Notes under the pieces: model-generated
What the model saw: the letters and a program-made list of their open reading frames with translations, nothing else
Told to the model about the DNA's origin: nothing
The model's database searches: none
Translations under genes and position numbers: made by a program
In this document: positions 39,313-63,633 of the stretch, in pieces
Layout of the letters: each line of letters opens with the position of its first letter
Position numbering within the stretch: position 1 is the stretch's first letter
Virus record (IMG/VR): IMGVR_UViG_3300021399_000008
Location: 1-64,000 of that record
DNA: 64,000 nt
Strand: one strand, 5' to 3'
DNA from: a virus
Taxonomy: Duplodnaviria > Caudoviricetes

Positions 39313-39388
39313 GCGGGAGTGGCGAAATTGGCATACGCGGCGTACTCTAAATACGCTAACTTTGAGGGTTCGAGTCCCTTCTCCCGTA
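39313..39388 (+). tRNA. amber suppressor tRNA (anticodon CTA) on a Leu-like body
   Basis: GCGGGAG/CTCCCGT acceptor, GCGTA-CTCTAAA-TACGC anticodon arm, TTCGAGT T-loop. Confidence 0.9.
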
Positions 39389-39419
39389 CTTACATAAAGT
39401 ATTGGGAAATTCGAAGCGA

Positions 39420-50800: not shown

Positions 50801-53800
50801 ACCGACGAAGAGTGGCGCGATTGGGCTGAGAACTATCAGAAGAACTTTATCGACTCAGCTGATCCTGACCTTGTAATCACAATGGTTGACTGCCACATTT
50901 AAAGGAGATAAAGAATGGACAAAGGAGGATGAAACCTGATGGATCAGGAACGTCTTAATCAGCTGGATTCGTATATTGGTATTGCGAACAACGTAGGGTT
51001 CAAGACATTAGAAGTAGATGTCGATCTTCTAAATGAAGCTGTGACTGAGCTTAAGAATAAGGTTCCGAGTACGCCTACATTCTGGCAGGGTAAAGCCTAC
51101 TGCGGTAAATGCGACAGCAGGATTCCAAAGAAACAGGTAATGAAATCACATTACTGTGCGAGTTGTGGCTGGCCTATTCAGTGGCCGAGTAAGAAGCCTG
51201 ATTATGGAGTAGGAAGGGATGCATAAAATGACTGAACTGAACCGAGTGATCTACGATATCGAACGGTGCACCTGTCACGTCCCTGATGCTTGCCGTGACT
51301 GCTCGAAATACAAGGGAGAGTACACGCCTGACTGCATGGAACAGTTGCTGACTGATGCGCTGAAACTGCTGAAAGAACAGCCTGAAATCGTTCATTGTAA
51401 AAACTGTAAATGGTTTAGCGAAAAAGGATTCTGCAAACACCCTGACGGTGGAGCTGGAAACATTCGGCCTGCAGATTGGTTCTGCGGTGATGGGAAAAGG
51501 CGGGAAGTGGAATGAAAGAGATCATCATAGAAGTGCCTGACAGATTTGGACAAGAGCTGAAACCTGAAAAAGTAAACAGTAAGATCAAAGGGGAACTTGT
51601 CCGGTGCGGAGACTGTAAACATTATAAGGACGGATTTTGCTACAACCCTAACACTTTTGATGCTGAAAAAATATGCGGAAATACTTCGCCAGACTGGTTC
51701 TGCGCTGATGGGAAAAGGCGGGAAGTGGATTGACAAATAAAGATGCTATCAAATGGCTTGGCAACCTAAGAAATGATCTGGGAAATCCGCATTATGAATG
51801 CCTTTGGCCTTACGCACAGGCACTTGATGAAATTGCTGAGATGCTGGAAGAACAGGAAACAGAACCGCAGATGGTACTATTTAGAGACGATGGCGAGTAT
51901 TGTCCGCATTGTTCGACGATTACAAGCAGAGCAATGGGAGTACAAAAACTGCATCGTGGCACAAGGTTTTGTCCGTACTGCGGAAAGGCTGTGACGTGGA
52001 ATGGTTGACAGAGGGAAAGTTATTAAAGAACTCATAAGATGCGATATTCCATATCCGTTACTATGCGATACCATTGCCTTGCTAACAGAGCAGGAACCTG
52101 TGAAGCCGATCAGATTAGAAAACTGGTGGAAATGTCCATATTGCAGTGGGAACATAGTTGCTAACATGAATTATTGTCCGAGATGTGGAAGGGCTGTGAA
52201 TTGGAATGAGTAATAAAGGCAGAGTAAAACAGGGACTGACGTGCTGTCAGGTTAGTCATAAACTGTATTGCGACAAGTGTCCGTATAAATATAAATACTC
52301 AACAGGAATTCTCGACTGTACAGCTGATCTGGCTGCGGATGCTTTAGAACTGATAAGAGAATACGAGAAGTACAGGTGGCAACCAGCAGAACAAAAGCCG
52401 AAAGAACCTGGGTGGTACTGGGTGTATGCTCCTACTTATCAAGGTGGATCGTCAACCTCTCGTGAACACCACGACGGAATCATGTTCGCGAAATGGAGCG
52501 GTACAGCCTGGAGTATAGAACGTGGCTACTACAACAGACCTGGCTGTGTGGAAGCATGGATGTTTCTTCCTAAGTCGCCAGTGAAGGAGAATATTAGATG
52601 AGCGAATGGATCAGCGTTAAGGACCAGATGCCATCAGATAATCAGATGGTAATCGGTTATACACCAGTTGATGGTCGTATGTTCGTAGGATTCTATAGAA
52701 CATTCCACTATTCACACATAGACAAACCTTTGGGTTATTGGTACATCGGGACGGCTATGCGATCCACAAAGCGTATGACAAAAAAAGTAACGCACTGGAT
52801 GTCATTGCCTAGTTCACCAAAGGAGGAGAACTAAGATAATGACCGATAAAGATCTTCTGAATGAGGATATGAAGAACAGGATCATAGAAGCTGCGCATAA
52901 AGCGATCAGCATGAGCCGTGAAGATTCAGATTGTGTTGATCGCACAGAAGTAGAAACCGAGGTTCTTCTTGGATTGTTGAAGATAGTAAGTATGCAGGAT
53001 GAGAACTCAGATGAATGGATCAGCGTTAAGGACCATCTTCCTCCGAGCCAGAAACATGTTCTGGCTGAGACAGACAAGTATGAATGCGTAGCCTTCTACG
53101 CTGAAAGATTCTCTGTCTCAGTCGGATACTATACTGACGATGAGATTGATTGTGAATACAACGAAGACTTGGACGAATACTTTCTGGCCGAAGGATGGTA
53201 CGAGGTTGTCCATAACTGGGAAGAATATTCAAGTATTACGATTGAAGACGAAGTGATTGGCTGGATGGATTTGCCACGAAGATCGAAGGAGTAAGTATGA
53301 TCTACTGGGATTACACGCTTAACTGGAAATATATCGTCGACAAAATGGAAGAGAAGTTTGGACTTAAACCAGACTCTACAGAGAAGCTTTCTATGGGTGA
53401 GATTGAGAGGAAGATCGAAGAGATCTGGGTAGAATATGTAGATATTTTGGATAAGAAATACACAGAAGCTGAGATTGTAGATTCTCTGGACAAGGAGATA
53501 GTGTGATGAATTCGCCATTGACCGCTGAAGAAGTAGACAAGGTAGCAAGACAGTACCTGTGGAAACGGCACTGGCTGGAGAGAAACACAGGCGAATAGTA
53601 TATTATCTAGATGGACATGATTGCTTATTCCAGCAGAGGTAAGAATCTGATCTATCGCTTTACAGATCCTGAGCTGAGTACCTTCAGTCAGGAATTTTTT
53701 ATGTGTCTGTTTTCAGAATACGGAGAGACATGGAGACTGTGGGATAACGAACCTACAGAAGAAGAAAGGAAAACTGCTGAGTGGAAGACAGCTTAAAGAT

Positions 53801-56449
53801 GTGTCCGTTATGTGGCGGCAACGCGGCTATAAGTTTCTGGCTGGAAGAAGATGTTTACAGCTACGCAGCCGGAAGAATTCGATGTTCTGAATGCTTCGTA
53901 ACACTGCAACGTCGGTTGGAGATTCAGTTCAACACGGAGAAGAATCCAGGTGAAACCTTTATGGATCTTGAGAAGGAACTGAAAACAACTTGGAACAGTC
54001 GCATTATGGAGGTAGCAAATGTCTGAAAGAACAGTAATCCCGCATCGGAATTATAAATACCTGTCCGACTACTGGTGTGAGTGCGGCTGGCATCTTGGAA
54101 AGAAAGGTTCAGTGAAATACTGCGCTGACTGCGGAAGGAAGATCGATTGGAATGATTATCGTTAAACGAGCCAAAGAAGGCATGCGGTGTAACTCGTGTT
54201 GTTCGGAGACTGGTGTCTACAATATAACGATGTTCCGATATACTGGCCAAGGCACGCAGATTTCGTTATGTGATGCTTGTATCGCAGACGTATACAAAGG
54301 GTATATTAAATGTAACAACGGCAACAACGAGGTAAAAGAGCTTGAACGAGATAAATAAAGCAGACGAAAAGGATGAACTCGATGAACTCGATGAACTCAT
54401 GACTGCTCTGGAGAATGCGGGTATTCTTTGCGGCTGGTCAAAGTTTATGGGTAGAACAGATGAGATAACGTGCAAAGACTGTCTTCTGAATCGTAACTGT
54501 CCTTGCGGATATTCAGCCGGGAACGCTGCTTGTCTGACTGTGAGGCAGCAACATCTGGACGAAACAATGATGGAGTTTGACGCTTACCATGACGAGATGG
54601 ACGGTATAGCTGAACAGTGCGAAATGGAGTCTTCACAGTGATTATAAAATATAAGCCAAACAAAATCACAGCGACTCTGCAAGCTGTTGTAGCCGGAGAG
54701 TTTCACGACGGTGCTACAGGAGAAACGGTTCGCCACTGTGTGGAGCAACAGTTAAGACATGCAGGGTTCGATGTTAATGTAAAACTAAAACATTACACCA
54801 GAGATCGCATTTCGATAGAAGAAACAAAGATTACAGCAGGTTTGCAGTTAAGAGTTACTGGAGAGTTTTACGATGACGAAGCATCAGAAGAAACACTTCG
54901 CTACTGTGTTGAACAGGATCTGGAAGACGCTGGGTTCTACGCTTATGTAAACGTTATAAGGAATTAAAAACATGGAAAAGCAGGAGAAGGTTTGGACAAA
55001 ACCGGAAATCGTTGAACTGATACAAACCAATGATCGTGTATTATATAAAGCATTGAAAACGCTTTATAACGAACAAAGCGAATCTGAACAAGAAGATAGT
55101 GAGACTATCGAAAGTAATGGCTCTGGATTCAATAAGATAGATGCTGAGTTTATGTCAGGCATCGTTAAGTTTCTAGACAAAAGAGGATTTCTAACAGATA
55201 AACAAAAAGAAGTTACTCGCAAGAAACTAGTTAAATATGCCGGGCAGCTTACAAGGTTGGCGAACCATCAACCAGCATATGAACCGCCGCAACCGAGAGT
55301 TCCAAAAGAAAAACCGAAAAAGAAACAGGTTGTAAACAAAGAAGTAAAATGCAGAGGTTGTCTGTTCAACTGTAGGTGTGCTTATGTTAATTCAGCTGGA
55401 AGTACAGGGTGCGTTTTAACTAGACAACACATGGATGGCGAAAGGGATTGGGTAATCGAAAAACATTTTCCTGATCTTGTTAAAACTGAGAGCGACAAAG
55501 CACCATGTCCGTTGTGCGGTGGTGTGCCGTCTGTTCAAGAACAAGAAATATATTTCGGTAGACCGGATCATAAATGGAGTTGCATACGGCATTATCTAAG
55601 GAATATCGTTTGCACAAAGTGCGGACTTCAGACAAGAAAGTTGTTATACAACACAGAATACGATGACTCGGATACTGTTTGTTCTCTGGGTCGTTACGCA
55701 TCAGATTCTGAAGTATGGGAAGACTGGGATAAGATAACCACAACATTTCGCATAGCGGAAGCTTTCGAATCTCTTTTAGATAAACAAGATGGGAGAACTG
55801 GCGATGATTGCGAACATACCGACTGAAGTAGTCCCTGTGTGGTATATAGAGAAGTGGGCGAAAAATAATTCTGAGGATGGATCTATTCTCAGCAACTGGA
55901 TAAAACGGCTGCTGAAAGACTGGCAGGAGTCTAAGGATAATCTGAGTGGAGGACATAATGACAGGACAGGAACTGATTAATTGGATCGTAGAACACAACG
56001 CTCAGGATATGCAGTGTGTGGTGCAGTACCGTGACGACAGCAACGCTTACTTGGAGCCGTTGAGCAGGTGGAATGAAGGCAGCATATCCAAACCCCCGGT
56101 GCTCGCTTCATATAAGGCTTACGACGCACCGTATGATAACGAGGTTGAAATCAAGTTCGAAATAGATAAACCGATCTGTTTCGATCCTCTCTGTTTTGTC
56201 CTTTGAGAATAGGTGATGAAAATGACAGGACTTGAACTGATTAAATGGATCATAAAACACGACGCTGAGGATAAGGAAATCATTATTGAACACAGAGACA
56301 GCGGCGGTTCGTACCGCACAGCAGAACGACTTGGCGAGTTCTCTGATCCTGCTTTTGTAATGTTTTCTGACGAAGGGTACGGAGTCATATCAAAGCTAGA
56401 ATACGAGTACGATGTGAAAGACTTTAAGCCAAACGGCGTTGTACTTTAA
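47850..56449 (+). CDS. dense array of ~30 small accessory genes (Zn ribbons, DUF551-like, Lar-like, MTG.ELI.WI family)
   Basis: overlapping ATGA junctions and RBSs; includes 50177..50902 (YNPKSKWDWW.IGGRW), 52598 and 52839 (EWISVKD), 53781 and 54972 (CPLCGG Lar-like). Confidence 0.7.
53506..53796 (+). CDS. hypothetical protein with two in-frame TAGs (53596, 53608)
   Basis: AAGGAG RBS, overlaps the upstream stop, in frame with the 53611 ORF ending YGETWRLW...PT. Confidence 0.75.
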
Positions 56450-56464
56450 CTGGGAGACTGAATA

Positions 56465-57436
56465 ATGCTTAATGTTGTATATACACATACAGGAAAAATA
56501 TTTGTAGACACAGAGAAACGACTGGAGTTTTTAACAGTAGGCGACTACGGGAAAGAGAATAATATAAAAGCAGATTTTCTTGGATTCACAAAGGAAATTA
56601 ATGGCGTTGCAAATACAGCGGTTGACTTAAGGAAAAAGTGGGTTGCAACGATCAGCACCCAACATGGATGTCCTATGAAGTGTCGGTTCTGCGACTGTCC
56701 GAAGTTTGGATATTACGGAAACGTGACACAGGATCTCCTTAAATACCAAATTGAAACAATCCTCCAGTCAGAAACATTGGACACTACAGATAGATTCAAC
56801 GTTCATTACGCAAGAATGGGAGAGCCGACATTTAACCAGAACGTTCTTAAATTTTCTGAAGATCAGTTAAGACAGGTGGTCGGCACTTATATCAGCGCAA
56901 AAACCATACATCCGGTTGTTTCCACGATGCTTCCAAAATCAAACAAAAACTTAGCCGCATTTCTTTTCGACTGGTGTAATATCAAAAACAATATATACAA
57001 AGGAGAAGCAGGTCTTCAGCTTTCTATTAACTCTACTAATGATAAACAGCGGTCATGGCAGTTTAATGATATGTCTATGGATCTGCGTGACATTGCGGCT
57101 CTTGCTGAAAAACTTCCTGATCCAGTTGGGAGGAAATATACACTTAACTTTGCGGTGACAAAAGATACAATTCTTGATGCAGAGAAATTATCAGCACTGT
57201 TTGATACGAATAAGTTTATAGTAAAGATTACGCCGATTCATCAGACAAACGCTGCGCTTACAAACAACTTTGATGTAACGACTTCCTATGCAGATTATGA
57301 TGTATATCGGGATTTTGAACAGCCTCTGCTGGACTGCGGCTGGGATGTGATTGTATTCGTTCCTAGCGTGGAAGAAGATAGCGACAGAATTACCTGCGGT
57401 AACGCACTGATTTCCGACGCAAATAAATCGGAGTAA
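56465..57436 (+). CDS. RlmN/Cfr-like radical SAM enzyme
   Basis: ISTQHGCPMKCRFC, MGEP, LQLSINS, C-terminal TCG. Confidence 0.85.
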   Translation: MLNVVYTHTGKIFVDTEKRLEFLTVGDYGKENNIKADFLGFTKEINGVANTAVDLRKKWVATISTQHGCPMKCRFCDCPKFGYYGNVTQDLLKYQIETILQSETLDTTDRFNVHYARMGEPTFNQNVLKFSEDQLRQVVGTYISAKTIHPVVSTMLPKSNKNLAAFLFDWCNIKNNIYKGEAGLQLSINSTNDKQRSWQFNDMSMDLRDIAALAEKLPDPVGRKYTLNFAVTKDTILDAEKLSALFDTNKFIVKITPIHQTNAALTNNFDVTTSYADYDVYRDFEQPLLDCGWDVIVFVPSVEEDSDRITCGNALISDANKSE

Positions 57437-58311
57437 AAATGAAAATAACGATAGAAATTCCACCTGAATACGAGAGTGAATTTGAAAAAGACAAATTCGA
57501 AAATACGCTCCAACGAATGAAAGCCGATGCACATTGTTTAGCAGGAAACTATGAGAAAGAAACTATAAACATGCTGATAGAAGCATTTAAGAACGCAAAG
57601 TCAGTGAGTTAAATAGGAGTTTAACATGTATATATTTGTAATACTTGCCGTTTTTGATTCGGTGATTATATGTCGCGCGATTATCAATATCGAAATTGAG
57701 ATTGAGAGAATCAGGAAATGTTTAGAAGATCACAAATGACAAAAATTGGAGGATAAAACATGACGGTCAAAGATGCAATGGACACGATTAAAGCTGCGAA
57801 AGTATACTCCAAATTTCTGTGTCAACTGGCTGACAAAGAACAGGACGAGCATTTTAAAGACTACTTAGAAGAATCATCCGAATTGCTTGAAGAATATGTG
57901 GGTGTGCTTGAACAAATGAAGGTGCAGGGGACTTAAATAGGAGTTTATAATGATTGTTATAGGCAAACGTGCGTACGGCACGGATCGGTTCAGATGGTTT
58001 TATCACCCGTTGTTGCCGCAGAACGAAAAGGAATTCTTTCATTTCTTTGTCTGGTTCGGCAAGAATTGGTATATATGTTGGCATAAGAAAGGTAAATAAC
58101 CATTTGAAAAAGGTTGGGCTTAATCCATGATTGAAAAGTTTCACATAGATGGCGGCGTCAACGATTATGCTACGATCCAAGAACCTGATAAGCACGAGGA
58201 TGAACGCAAGCAGTTGATCAATGAAGGATATCAACTTTGGAGCAGATATGTTAAAGACGGTAAGCAAGAAGAGCTGTGGGTTAAATAACCATTTAAGACT
58301 GGAGGAATAAA

Positions 58312-58521
58312 ATGTCTTTTGCAGATGCTGTTTTAGCTATGAAACAGGGAAAGAGAGTGCGTCTGCCGTGGTGGGGAGGATACTGGTACATCGCAAACAA
58401 CACACTCAGAATACATTGTGCAGACGATGACGACTTTAATGCATTTAGCAGAGAAAACACAGAACCGCTTTACACTTTGTCATTTATGACTGCAAACTGT
58501 TGGGAGTTAGTCCAGGATTAA
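58312..58521 (+). CDS. DUF2829/Tad2-like protein
   Basis: MSFADA..AMK.GKRVR...W.G...A..WELV. Confidence 0.7.
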   Translation: MSFADAVLAMKQGKRVRLPWWGGYWYIANNTLRIHCADDDDFNAFSRENTEPLYTLSFMTANCWELVQD

Positions 58522-58713
58522 ATAACCCGAGGTGGGATCAATGCACAAATATATTCGTAGTATTCTTAGGTTTACCATTCGACACAAAAAGATCGATCAG
58601 ATTTTCAGCAAATGGCAGTGGTTTAGGATTCTGTGCTACGAGGAAGCGCAAGCGGTTATTGGAAATAGGCCGTGGATGTAATTTAAATAACACTGTTACA
58701 AGGAGAAAATGAA

Positions 58714-58944
58714 ATGTACGTCAGAGATTTGAACGGCGGAAAACCAATTGTATTCAAAACTGTGGTTAGTTATTGTCCTCCAGATTGCGGAGGTGCGGAC
58801 GAAGATGAAATTGATTATGAGGCGTTTTGCCCGGTTTGCGATCGTAGATTCGATGATTTAGATCACGACAAGTTTTGTAGAGAGTGTGGCACAAAATTGT
58901 ACTGGCCTGCCAAATGGCCAATAATTAAGAAAATCGATAATTAA
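58714..58944 (+). CDS. Zn-ribbon protein
   Basis: CPVC...FCRECG. Confidence 0.75.
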   Translation: MYVRDLNGGKPIVFKTVVSYCPPDCGGADEDEIDYEAFCPVCDRRFDDLDHDKFCRECGTKLYWPAKWPIIKKIDN

Positions 58945-58960
58945 ATAACTCTTTAATTTT

Positions 58961-59053
58961 CTGACATATGCCGGATGCCATAGGGCGGCGTAGTGGTGAC
59001 TTTCGGTGGCTCGGTTCGACTCCGGGGCTGTCCGTGGTTTTAACTTATGTCAG
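58961..59053 (+). ncRNA. tRNA-like fragment inside a terminal stem
   Basis: T-arm CTCGG-TTCGACT-CCGGG; outer stem CTGACATA/TATGTCAG. Confidence 0.45.
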
Positions 59054-59484
59054 TAAACCGAACCTTAAATAGGAGCTTATAATATGAAAGCAATTATAAC
59101 ATTTAACGCCCATCTTGAAATTGATATTGATGACAAATCGCGGGATGAAATAGTTTCAGAGGACGTGCAAATCGTACAGATGAAACATCTGCTAATGGAA
59201 GAATGCGGTTGCGAGCACGTTGAAATAAGCGAGTATCATATGGAACTTAAATAACCCATTAAATAAAGGTAGGCGGCGAAGCGAAATGAAAATAAGAGTA
59301 TGGGCGCATACGGATGTAGTCGGGAGTATGACCGAAGACGTTATAGAAGTTGAAGACGGTTTAACTGAAGAACAAATTGACGAAGAGGCAAGAGATTATA
59401 TTTTCAATTTTGTCGAATGGGGATGGGAAACAGAGCAAGATGATTAACAGAGACGAGATTAAAACTATAACGGAGTGATTGTGA

Positions 59485-62361: not shown

Positions 62362-63633
62362 ATGAGTATAGATATAGAAAGTATTAAATAGATCGTACAT
62401 GAAACTCTGAAAGAATCGCTGGCTATGTACCTTGAAAACTCAATGTTTCCAGGTTTCCTCAGACCAGAGAAAGAAGAGGAAACCATGGGTGATTTCAGAT
62501 CATTCGTAAATATAGGAACAAGAGAGAAGCCTGTGATGAAGAGGTTAGCCGCGAAGAGCCAGCAGGAACTGAACGACAGGATCGTAAAGGCTTACGTAGA
62601 TTCAGGAAGAATATGGGAGTTTTTGGAGTTAAAATCGGACTCTGAGAATAAACCCAGGGAAACATTCGGGCAGTATGTTGAACGCTGGATTTCGCTCTAT
62701 AAAGTCAATAAAATACGTGGAAACACACTGAAGGATTATAAGACAATACTGACAGGATATCTTATACCGGAGTTCGGGAACAGAGAGTTCGCCTCTATAA
62801 CGACAGATGACTTCCAGAAGTTCCTGAATAAGAACAAACATTTGTCGATGAAGTACCTGACGAACATAAAGATTCTGTTTGGATCTATAGCTAAGGATGC
62901 TGTTGAGGACGGAGTTATAGATAAAGATCCTACTGCGAGCAGGAAACTGTTTATACCTTCGACGAAGAAGAAGGAACGTAAACCTTTAAAGAAGGAAGAG
63001 TATCTGGAAATTCTCGAAGAAGTTAAGAAGCTGAAAGGAAGATTGTATCTTTTGATTGTTCTGCTTATGTTAAGTGGGCTGAGAAGAGGAGAAGTCCTGG
63101 GGCTGAAATGGGAAGACTTCTGCTGGGATGAAGGATACTTCGTAGTTCAAAGGAACGTGACCTTCTCGAAAGGAATATCTGAAGTAGGCGAGACTAAGAC
63201 TGAGTCTGGAAAGAGGAAGGTTCCTATATTAAAAGAACTCAGAACTTTTCTTGAGCCTTATAAGAAGGAATCTGGTTTTATTATCGAAGCTAAAGGAAGA
63301 GATCAGCAGCCAATCTGCAAGTCGACCTTCGACAGAGACTGGTACCAGCTGAATAAACTGATTAACCTGCACGGAGCTACACCTCATATCTTCAGGCACA
63401 CATTCCTGACATTACTGGCTGCGTCTGGGGTAGACATTAAGACTCTGCAGACGATAGCCGGACACAGTAATGCTGAGGTAACAATGAGAGTGTACGTACA
63501 TCCTGTTGACTCAAATATAGTAAAGGCAGGAGCAATGTTCAGTAAGTCAGTCTTTGATAATGTTGACTGGACTAAGTACGAAGAGATTACGGAGAAGTCT
63601 GAGATCGAAGAAGAAGTAGATAACGTAAGTTAA
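62362..63633 (+). CDS. int: tyrosine integrase (N-terminal extension contains TAG at 62389; alternative start 62485)
   Basis: GLRRGE, KT..G.R, HIFRHT, AGH, Y; GGAGG RBS at 62352. Confidence 0.95.

Follow-up and report, generated by a model that had tools for sequence, protein, structure and literature searches.

The window analysed here is the whole 64,000-nt stretch of DNA, positions 1–64,000 of the 116,328-bp genome of this rumen phage (G000). At 57.6–59.3 kb, the sequence (AC)TTAAATA occurs nine times in one orientation, at nine gene junctions (motif starts 57609, 57933, 58092, 58281, 58518, 58683, 58941, 59065 and 59247); there is also a tenth core, at 59259, and a degenerate copy, at 57423. 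The core is followed by GGAG… in three copies (type A) and by AC… in six (type B). The parts of the array are as follows:

57423..57438, + strand: degenerate type A junction (ATAAATCGGAG); overlaps the radical SAM stop and forms the left edge of the array
57439..57612, + strand: cassette gene, 57 aa, no family match
57609..57624, + strand: type A linker (TTAAATAGGAGTTTAA), a perfect palindrome; contains the TAA stop of the upstream gene, at +2, and the next gene's SD
57626..57936, + strand: two genes, of 37 aa (hydrophobic) and 58 aa (family F11), not separated by a canonical linker
57933..57948, + strand: type A linker
57950..58099, + strand: cassette gene, 49 aa, family F12
58092..58107, + strand: type B linker (GTAAATAACC...); upstream TAA stop at +6
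58127..58288, + strand: cassette gene, 53 aa
58281..58296, + strand: type B linker, a perfect palindrome; breakpoint 1 relative to L333 and L334
58312..58521, + strand: cassette gene, 69 aa; a weak, sub-cut-off match to Tad2-like/DUF2829 (E 0.002)
58518..58533, + strand: type B linker
58541..58681, + strand: cassette gene, 46 aa, basic
58683..58698, + strand: type B linker; breakpoint 2 relative to L333 and L334
58714..58944, + strand: cassette gene, 76 aa, zinc-ribbon protein
58941..58956, + strand: type B linker, a perfect palindrome; breakpoint 3
58957..59064, + strand: non-coding cassette
59065..59080, + strand: type A linker
59084..59254, + strand: cassette gene, 56 aa, family F4; the core itself serves as its final two codons (CTT AAA) and stop
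59247..59269, + strand: type B linker; the second core follows 12 nt on (59259) and precedes the next gene's SD; forms the right edge of the dense array
59286..59447, + strand: first post-array gene, 53 aa, DUF7167

The sequence-only reading of this DNA had counted nine copies in 1.7 kb, three of them perfect inverted repeats, and had described the cargo as AT-richer than the core genes. All nine copies were recovered; exactly three (57609, 58281 and 58941) are perfect TTAAA-N6-TTTAA repeats, where 0.04 are expected in the window, and the GC content is 40% in the array versus 45% in the genome. The proviso that the motif frequency might simply match an AT-rich background can be dropped, as the observed frequency is far higher: TTAAATARS has eight exact occurrences, all on the + strand, in the 3 kb around the array, where dinucleotide shuffles predict 0.19. 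Across the + strand of the whole genome, 9 of 11 matches to TAAATA[AG][CG] fall inside the 1.7-kb array.

The description of the linkers as TTAAA-N6-TTTAA sites stood only in part. The full form is present three times here, but it is not a conserved feature: the right arm TTTAA is perfect in 18 of the 81 copies from 15 array regions (22%; type A, 12/63; type B, 6/18), and left of the core the same copies have no conservation except a preference for AC. The linker is asymmetric: (A)C-TTAAATA continues into GGAG(T)TT(A) in type A, and into AC(AC)(T)TTAA with a separate SD in type B. It is this asymmetric core, not the palindrome, that is conserved. Junctions are 11–17 nt long, and type B is conserved over 16–17 nt across unrelated phages though it has no SD. 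A role for the linker as a structured RNA was rejected, since the perfect copies form only weak hairpins (-1.8 to -4.2 kcal/mol) and the right arm is not conserved.

Translation signals and cargo

Stop codons had been said to lie often within the site, and the upstream stops are indeed inside or beside the motif, in three registers (-4, +2 and +6). The linker terminates the upstream ORF, with stops available in two reading frames, and its sequence is constant whatever frame the upstream gene reads, which excludes a coding constraint. The TAGGAG spacer had been taken as the ribosome-binding site of the next gene, in agreement with the three type A copies of the window, where AGGAG lies 5–9 nt ahead of the next ATG. 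Among the 63 type A copies of the 15 array regions, all on the coding strand, most have a start codon 5–10 nt past GGAG, and type A was found at array genes only. The TTAAAT prefix is likewise array-specific; of the AGGAG-N4-10-ATG sites, it stands before 3 of 58 in this genome and before 14 of 89 in a second phage genome (G001), and each site so marked is inside an array.

No terminator or strong promoter was predicted on the + strand between 54 and 62.3 kb, and there is no -35/-10 pair in the motif; the motif as a promoter or terminator is thus unsupported. As this stretch lacks such predicted signals, the array is probably one transcript, and its cassettes appear to be promoterless and mostly single genes.

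These properties invite a purely regulatory reading, which we consider rather unlikely. The linker, travelling with each gene, would signal translation or termination or would be the operator of a translational repressor or RNase; cassette boundaries would match it only because surviving mosaics are cut at gene boundaries, with the motif not promoting recombination. Type A, AU-rich and 5–10 nt before starts, is a near-optimal initiation region, as this reading would predict, and there is a precedent in the start-associated sequences (SAS) of Cluster K mycobacteriophages (Pope et al. 2011, PMC3203893). SAS are 13-bp asymmetric motifs with ATAGGAG and weakly symmetric ends, placed in one orientation a few nucleotides ahead of the starts of some non-structural genes; they often enclose the stop of the preceding gene, and their conservation exceeds the needs of rRNA pairing. 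The linker resembles them in its ATAGGAG content, its single orientation, its confinement to some of the non-structural genes and the stop that it encloses. Of the two linker types, only type A, with most starts 5–10 nt past GGAG, matches the SAS arrangement, in which an asymmetric AGGAG motif lies 3–8 nt before starts in one orientation; type B is without AGGAG. The SAS sequence itself, GGGATAGGAGCCC, belongs to Cluster K only, whereas the linker has the flanks TTAAAT and TTTA and is carried by unrelated phages with Clostridia hosts. SAS are also limited to one phage cluster, are spread across half the genome and carry no proposed role in gene exchange; here, in contrast, the copies are contiguous, mark mosaic breakpoints and cross lineages. 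Type B, SD-less yet conserved and breakpoint-marking, argues against the regulatory reading.

Searches for a cargo function in Pfam, PHROGs and the ESM Atlas yielded nothing beyond weak leads (Tad2-like, E 0.002; DUF7167; zinc ribbons; DUF3113 at 0.86). The combination of small zinc-ribbon and acidic proteins, the weak Tad2-like match, Lar-like neighbours and tRNA-like RNAs suggests that the cargo is probably host-takeover or anti-defence equipment. The cassette that had been called non-coding (58957–59064) has no convincing ORF. Within an outer stem, it contains a 51-nt tRNA-like minihelix (58983–59033) with an acceptor-like stem and a canonical T-arm. The minihelix core is identical in the close relatives L333 and L334, the surrounding block is 94% identical and the stem changes are G.U-compatible. 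Neither this cassette nor the ~210-nt RNA-like cassettes of G001 gave a tRNA, Rfam or intron-tRNA call.

Breakpoints in close relatives and unrelated phages

Gene gain or loss with breakpoints at the motif had been put forward as the check on a capture and shuffling system, and such breakpoints were found both in L333 and L334 and in unrelated phages. L333 and L334 are 94–98% identical to this phage, and the array differs by whole-cassette replacement, translocation and insertion. All five array breakpoints among the three phages are at TTAAATAAC, within 2 nt. At breakpoint 1 (58281), identity to both relatives runs through TTAAATAAC(C) and the sequences are unrelated beyond it; at breakpoint 2 (58683), both relatives are unrelated ahead of the core and identical past it; and at breakpoint 3 (58941), the three phages each continue with a different sequence. 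The 69-aa gene at 58312..58521 is in a different array slot in L333 and missing from L334, and the 46-aa gene at 58541..58681 was matched nowhere in either locus. L333 carries a replacement of the radical SAM gene, with similarity picking up again at the degenerate junction 57423..57438.

A second close pair, G001 and L330 (97–99% identical), differs by a two-cassette indel between direct repeats of AGGAGTTTA and by one cassette relocated to the opposite end of the array; some breakpoints of this pair lie after GGAGTTTA or at no motif. In the L333/L334 comparison, indels or replacements of a Lar-like gene and of the radical SAM gene break at start codons, with the linker absent or degenerate, so gene-boundary mosaicism can also be motif-free. 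These boundary indels without a canonical motif speak for the regulatory reading, but the direct repeats of the motif flanking the two-cassette indel speak against it. Moreover, random insertion followed by selection would be unlikely to rebuild an identical 9–16-nt junction at nearly every slot, or to pack almost all genomic copies into contiguous arrays.

Arrays with the same motif occur in at least 14 further phage contigs, mostly from the rumen, which differ in size and range from 35 to 58% GC. The carriers are G001 (two arrays, with 9 and 11 copies), G002–G005, L322, L326, L265/L285, L247, L134, L202, L330, L331, L336 and one rumen Clostridiales MAG. That they span this GC range and both genetic codes makes a single common regulator unlikely. 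Array GC is 40–45% even where the genome is at 51–58%.

When six whole genomes were compared, DNA matches between unrelated phages were nearly all short and the strongest were single cassettes (150–260 bp, 79–89% identity), the exception being a longer, weakly similar block common to G003 and G004. Among 52 HSPs from the 15 array regions, the linker was present in both partners at the start in 18, at the end in 20 and at both in 11, against random-placement expectations of 0.01, 0.04 and 0.0005, respectively. The cassettes neighbouring these motif-bounded matches were different each time, and families F3, F4, F9, F10, F12, F14, F19 and F25 all have neighbours that differ from genome to genome. 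Family F11 directly follows a type A linker in L326, and the F12 homologue of L322 is behind a type B linker with different neighbours. For F4, whose contexts were sampled through one metagenome scan (20 F4 protein clusters), there were at least eight different upstream and at least seven different downstream contexts, most with the core or a near-variant at each end; L338 was without the core. Individual cassettes, RNA genes included, were found in varying orders and genomes, with homology beginning and stopping in the linker. Linker-bounded cassettes are common to many otherwise unrelated temperate phages of rumen Clostridia, and the earlier proposal of capture and shuffling of accessory genes gains support in the form of exchangeable, motif-bounded cassettes.

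The same comparisons make it very improbable that the arrays are vertical remnants of one ancestral array, shaped by differential loss and divergence only, with the motif left over from an ancient tandem duplication. Some families do recur within a genome, as F5 does in both G001 arrays (89% identity). However, the carriers share almost no other DNA and are up to 23 GC points apart, the proteins of one array are mutually unrelated and the order of common families is never conserved.

A blastn search against 50,697 GenBank phages gave no match, and the motif strings were not found in the phage papers of the literature searched. Relatives retrieved through the flanking radical SAM gene (80 loci, ≤74% aa identity) shared no small genes and had no arrays, and were of no use for synteny. 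Cyanobacterial matches to the double-motif pattern (L327 and L329) were discarded as other repeats.

Recombinase candidates and known systems

Half-sites of known tyrosine recombinases are ~9–13 bp, inverted about a spacer of 6–8 bp. The sequence-only reading had assigned the linker to this class, as a dif-like site with inverted arms around a 6-bp spacer, and this part of it we do not retain. Only TTAAA/TTTAA, 5 bp, can pair, in three of the nine copies here and 22% overall, and nothing is conserved left of the core. The nearby integrase (62485–63633, 3 kb downstream of the array) scores 43.8 bits against the 265-bit cut-off of TIGR02249, the integron-integrase model, and 36.3 against the 435 cut-off of NF011946, and is generic. 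The integrases of the array phages fall into two unrelated families, 3 to >16 kb from the arrays, and some G001/L330 breakpoints are at no fixed core position.

These data bear on a true site-specific cassette system, in which a phage or host recombinase would read the TTAAATA core and a flank and cassettes would move as circles, an integron analogue without IntI and attC. We regard this as distinctly unlikely. It would explain why every breakpoint among G000, L333 and L334 is within ~2 nt of one 9-bp core and why type B is conserved beyond translational need, and the ends of a circularised cassette would recreate TTAAA-N6-TTTAA. A tyrosine recombinase is also encoded in all five complete array-bearing genomes checked (this phage included), at 3–5 kb from the array in three. 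Against it stand the unconserved left half-site, the rarely perfect right arm, the short arms, the two integrase families and the breakpoints of G001/L330 that are off-motif. Nor was a resolvase-type recombinase found, and no protein family is common to all six genomes compared; a single gene common to the array phages as the recombinase was rejected on these grounds. The array phages also have no single-strand annealing recombinase in common: ERF occurs in G001 and G006 only, and neither RecT nor AAA_24 was found. The most regular neighbours of the arrays are small Lar-like zinc-ribbon proteins, not enzymes.

In integrons, attC sites are imperfect inverted repeats with R''/L''-L'/R' boxes at cassette 3' ends. 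The array resembles an integron in its co-oriented, apparently promoterless and mostly single-gene cassettes expressed from upstream, in its varied neighbours, in a short invariant core at each boundary and in cargo that differs in composition from its carrier. It differs in having no IntI-type integrase, no attC-like imperfect palindrome of 55–140 bp and no attI or Pc beside the integrase; the junction here is also a stop and ribosome-binding site, and the carriers are phages.

A closer likeness is to PeSLs (promoter-early stem-loops), the regulatory cassettes of T4-type phages (Arbiol et al. 2010, PMC2839356; Comeau et al. 2014, PMC4122927). These too are regulatory motifs repeated in intergenic positions, set among small non-essential ORFs of plastic regions. 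Each takes in the stop of the preceding gene, an AT-rich stretch and the next gene's SD, and they have been proposed as carriers for the horizontal transfer of single ORFs. Insertions, deletions and replacements have breakpoints in the PeSL motif, as they do in the linker in G000 versus L333/L334 and in G001 versus L330. PeSLs are several times longer than the linker and include a G+C-rich terminator stem-loop and a strong sigma-70 promoter; the array has no predicted terminator or strong promoter, and only 9–16 nt are conserved. Its hosts are Gram-positive and its phages temperate, and linker and cassettes cross otherwise unrelated phages rather than staying in one phage family. Mini-circles have been shown for PeSLs.

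The array shares with morons the placement of AT-richer accessory genes between resident genes, but each classical moron stands alone and brings its own promoter and terminator. The modular theory of phage evolution includes short conserved boundary sequences, proposed for homologous exchange (summarised in PMC3029335); these are missing from most mosaic joints of other phages, whereas here one marks nearly every joint of the array.

Model and significance

Our preferred reading, to which we give a probability of about 0.5, is that the linker is the stop and ribosome-binding joint of promoterless mobile cassettes and also their recombination joint, in a minimal PeSL-like system with no dedicated integrase. 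The translational joint would double as the point at which cassettes are inserted, lost or swapped. The most likely route would be recombination or template switching on the 9–16 nt of common sequence, with co-resident phages or prophages as partners, and selection would keep those junctions that preserve the stop and start signals. Minimal efficient pairing segments are 31–34 bp for RecA and 23–27 bp for Red-beta (PMC3945230). The common sequence is well under both, so ordinary homologous recombination at the linker would be very inefficient, a point that favours both the regulatory and the site-specific readings. The conserved, SD-less type B hints at an additional function of the linker, such as protein binding, which also counts against the preferred model.

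Phage mosaicism is usually viewed as the product of rare illegitimate joins with no common signature. Here, dense arrays in at least 15 phage contigs have one 9–16-nt linker at almost all of their joints, and single cassettes are shared by phages with almost nothing else in common. The unit of exchange and the joint thereby both become explicit and open to testing. The array looks like a shared plug-and-play gene pool rather than a classical integron. There is a slim chance that the (AC)TTAAATA core is the crossover site of dedicated capture and excision machinery, phage- or host-encoded, making the array a phage 'integron' without IntI or attC. If so, dedicated machinery would move protein-coding and small-RNA cassettes among unrelated temperate phages of rumen Clostridia, across 23 GC points and between standard and TAG-recoded codes, and finding the enzyme would define a new class of gene-capture system. 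That cassettes pass between standard-code and TAG-recoded phages bears on the acquisition and timing of early genes in recoded phages. The linker is also a search handle for small accessory genes and RNAs, otherwise unannotatable ORFans, in rumen and gut viromes, and what it retrieves is likely to include anti-defence or host-takeover factors.

Linkers and array in the window phage

The window phage genome (116,328 bp in IMG/VR, with direct terminal repeats; the window is its first 64 kb) carries at 57.4-59.3 kb a row of + strand genes encoding 37-76 aa each. At almost all junctions of this row lies (T/G)TAAATA, which is continued in one of two ways.

Linkers of the window array
57609, 57933, 59065, +: type A, GGAG(T/C)TTA and then ATG
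58092, 58281, 58518, 58683, 58941, 59247, +: type B, AC.. and then a separate SD

Within the 3 kb surrounding the array there are eight copies of TTAAATARS, on the + strand only, against 0.19 expected from shuffles, and 9 of the 11 + strand copies of TAAATA[AG][CG] in the whole genome lie within the array. Perfect TTAAA-N6-TTTAA is present in three copies (0.04 expected), and the array has a GC content of 40% versus 45% for the genome. The sequence-only reading had described nine copies, three perfect inverted repeats and AT-rich cargo; all are correct, the copies were found where it had placed them, and the motif frequency is far from that of an AT-rich background. On the + strand of 54-62.3 kb there was neither a terminator nor a strong promoter, which suggests that the cassettes are promoterless units within one long transcript.

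Across 81 linker copies from 15 array regions, information content was found in TTAAATA plus GGAG or AC(AC), with AC favoured immediately before the core and no conservation farther left. The right arm TTTAA was perfect in 12/63 type A and 6/18 type B copies, and the hairpins of perfect copies were weak (-1.8 to -4.2 kcal/mol). Stops of the upstream ORF fall at -4, +2 or +6 from the core, in three registers and two frames, which argues that the motif is under constraint at the DNA or RNA level rather than at the protein level. In family F4 (window gene 59084-59254), the core itself encodes Leu-Lys-stop. In most type A copies, GGAG is 5-10 nt from the start codon. TTAAAT precedes AGGAG-N4-10-ATG at 3 of 58 sites in the window phage genome and 14 of 89 in G001, a 107-kb phage, every one inside arrays; the prefix differs from the general ribosome-binding-site style of the window phage.

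TAG is read as sense in the window phage and in G002, a phage fragment of 35% GC, and not in G001 or G003-G005. Genes that stop at linker +6 in the recoded window phage use TAA, with a type B linker (58099, 58288, 59254), and the F4 copy in standard-code G001 (82266; compare window 59247-59255 and locus L202) has TAG at +6, with type A. A change from TAG to TAA at this position removes the SD and, on these few cases, may explain the type B richness of the window phage. Window 39313-39389 encodes an amber-suppressor tRNA (anticodon CUA), consistent with TAG recoding, and TAG read-through lengthens the longest ORF from 2013 to 4808 codons.

Cassette exchange among close and unrelated phages

Two contigs from a metagenome scan with an F4 alignment, L333 and L334, are 94-98% identical to the window across several kb. 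Both have one unrelated 169-nt cassette in place of the pair at 58312-58521 and 58541-58681; L333 carries the Tad2-like cassette in a different array slot, and L334 has two other cassettes past the zinc-ribbon gene, of which one has a homologue among the cassettes of G002. The non-coding cassette follows a different upstream cassette in each of the three phages, and its homology begins 1-2 nt past the core. All five breakpoints in the array lie at TTAAATAAC, off by 2 nt at most.

Outside the array, L333 has a ~75-aa zinc-ribbon ORF in place of the RlmN/Cfr-like radical SAM gene (window 56465-57436) and lacks the 284-aa Lar-like gene (window 54972-55826); both are thus dispensable accessory genes. 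Here the breakpoints are at start codons and the linker is absent or degenerate. This counts in favour of a purely regulatory linker with no causal part in recombination, like the start-associated sequences (SAS) of Cluster K mycobacteriophages (PMC3203893), a reading we consider doubtful. The second close pair, locus L330 and G001 array b (97-99% identical), differs by a two-cassette indel between direct repeats of AGGAGTTTA, by one cassette relocated to the opposite array end and by a small ORF with tRNA-Ile(UAU) inserted behind a linker. Part of the breakpoints in this pair are off the fixed position, or away from any motif.

We searched IMG/VR for the exact type A string, which gave chiefly lone chance matches plus several clustered contigs, and added two further pattern scans and one protein-based scan. 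At least the following records carry arrays, among the matches listed.

Array-bearing records
G001, 107 kb, GC 51%: two arrays, 9 and 11 copies
G002, 70-kb fragment, GC 35%: one array
G003, 44 kb, GC 52.5%: two short arrays
G004, 46 kb, GC 58%: one array
G005, 69 kb, GC 53%: one array
G006 (L326), 116 kb: 6 copies
G007 (L322), 48-kb fragment: 10 copies within 2 kb
G008 (L265/L285), 67 kb: 6 and 2 copies
L134, L202, L247, L330, L331, L336: additional arrays

In all array contigs found, the copies form clusters and lie on the coding strand. The arrays have a GC content of 40-45%, also within genomes of 51-58%. RUG13503, a rumen Clostridiales MAG, has a 200-kb contig with two linker copies and a homologue of window gene 59084-59254, which points to Clostridiales as the probable host group.

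By whole-genome blastn, six array phages have next to nothing in common between unrelated genomes save for a handful of short matches, of which single cassettes (150-260 bp, 79-89% identity) are the strongest; a longer block is common to G003 and G004 (65-72% identity). Among 52 HSPs between the 15 array regions, we counted those starting within 5 nt of a linker or ending 0-16 nt past one in both partners: 18 started there (0.01 by random placement), 20 ended there (0.04) and 11 did both (0.0005). At the aligned junctions, similarity is confined to the stretch from the first core T to AAATA(GGAG) of the next core, with unrelated sequence on either side.

Protein clustering showed that common cassette families have changed neighbours in each genome. 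F3 is preceded by F14, F25, F20 or F8; downstream of F9 comes F18, F10 or an orphan; and F14 lies beside an orphan and F3 in G001, beside F19 and F20 in G002. F4 has at least eight upstream and seven downstream contexts, in most with the core or a near-variant at both ends.

Protein and RNA cargo

The cassette proteins are mainly ORFans, with weak or uninformative matches: Tad2-like (E 0.002), DUF7167 and zinc ribbons. Among the flanking genes are those for Lar-like zinc-ribbon proteins, with several paralogues, and in other phages one for a dUTPase-like protein. From size, position and these weak matches, we infer a possible role in anti-defence or host takeover. Most array phages have, adjoining the arrays, several paralogues of a ~70-130-aa family with N-terminus M.DREKVI..LE.C, a C-terminal zinc ribbon and weak Lar-like matches.

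Members of the M.DREKVI..LE.C family
window 51204-51515 and 52001-52213
L209:17462-17764 and L209:18230-18535
L206:18966-19271

Directly upstream of the radical SAM gene, window 55946-56206 and 56213-56449 are adjacent paralogues (86 and 78 aa; 87% identity across 53 nt).

RNA genes also occur as cassettes: a tRNA-Ile in L330, ~210-nt elements in G001 and the non-coding cassette of the window.

RNA cassettes
58983-59033, within 58957-59064: tRNA-like minihelix, 51 nt, core of the non-coding cassette
L208:2538-2752 and L208:616-870 (G001 array b): non-coding, each about 210-250 nt, also in L134, L330 and L338
L330:2797-2871: tRNA-Ile(UAU)

The minihelix has a 7-bp acceptor-like stem (GGGCGGC/GCTGTCC, two G.U pairs), with a canonical T-arm (CTCGG-TTCGACT-CCGGG) stacked under it and just 20 nt between, and is enclosed by an outer stem, CTGACATAT/TTATGTCAG. 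Neither ARAGORN nor Rfam called it. It is unchanged in L333 and L334, where the surrounding block is 94% identical, and may be a small RNA cargo, e.g. a decoy or processing signal. The ~210-250-nt cassettes have ends (5' GCGGTGGCGGAACAGGTAGACGC, 3' GAGGTGCAAATCCTCACCCGC) that together resemble a class II (Leu-like) tRNA split in half, with unrelated middles; they are 95-99% conserved across different phages and gave no tRNA, intron-tRNA or Rfam call. The bona fide tRNA-Ile(UAU) lies 43 nt past a type A linker, within 308 nt that are inserted in L330 by comparison with G001. A separate tRNA-Ile(UAU) is encoded by the window phage at 44407-44481.

Possible routes of exchange

That accessory cassettes are captured and shuffled at the motif, as the sequence-only reading had proposed, is well supported by the HSP ends and the breakpoints of gene gain and loss in relatives. 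Its tyrosine-recombinase (dif-like) site found no support: the arms are not of recombinase size and the nearby integrase is generic. As a candidate integron integrase, this gene, 3 kb downstream of the array, fell far under the integron model cut-off. Temperate phages encode tyrosine integrases, and all four complete relatives tested have one, from two unrelated families and at varying distance to the arrays. No resolvase was found in the array-phage genomes examined, no protein family is common to all six genomes compared and no annealing recombinase is common to the array-bearing phages.

By analogy, we favour exchange of cassettes at a common regulatory linker, as in the promoter-early stem-loop (PeSL) cassettes of T4-type phages (PMC2839356, PMC4122927), where selection would keep junctions with an intact stop and initiation region. 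The weak point is linker length, since 9-16 nt is shorter than the minimal pairing segments reported for RecA and Red-beta (PMC3945230). Together with the lack of a common annealing recombinase, this leaves rare microhomology joins or template switches, or else a novel activity; that such an activity acts at the linker seems to us improbable, more so than the purely regulatory linker.

The linker motif strings were not found in phage papers within the literature library searched. That regulatory linkers can act as joints in modular shuffling is a known concept; new, at the level of sequence comparison, are a linker of minimal, promoterless form, its two discrete types, the RNA cassettes, and one linker and one cassette pool common to phages that differ in backbone, in GC content and in genetic code without being related.
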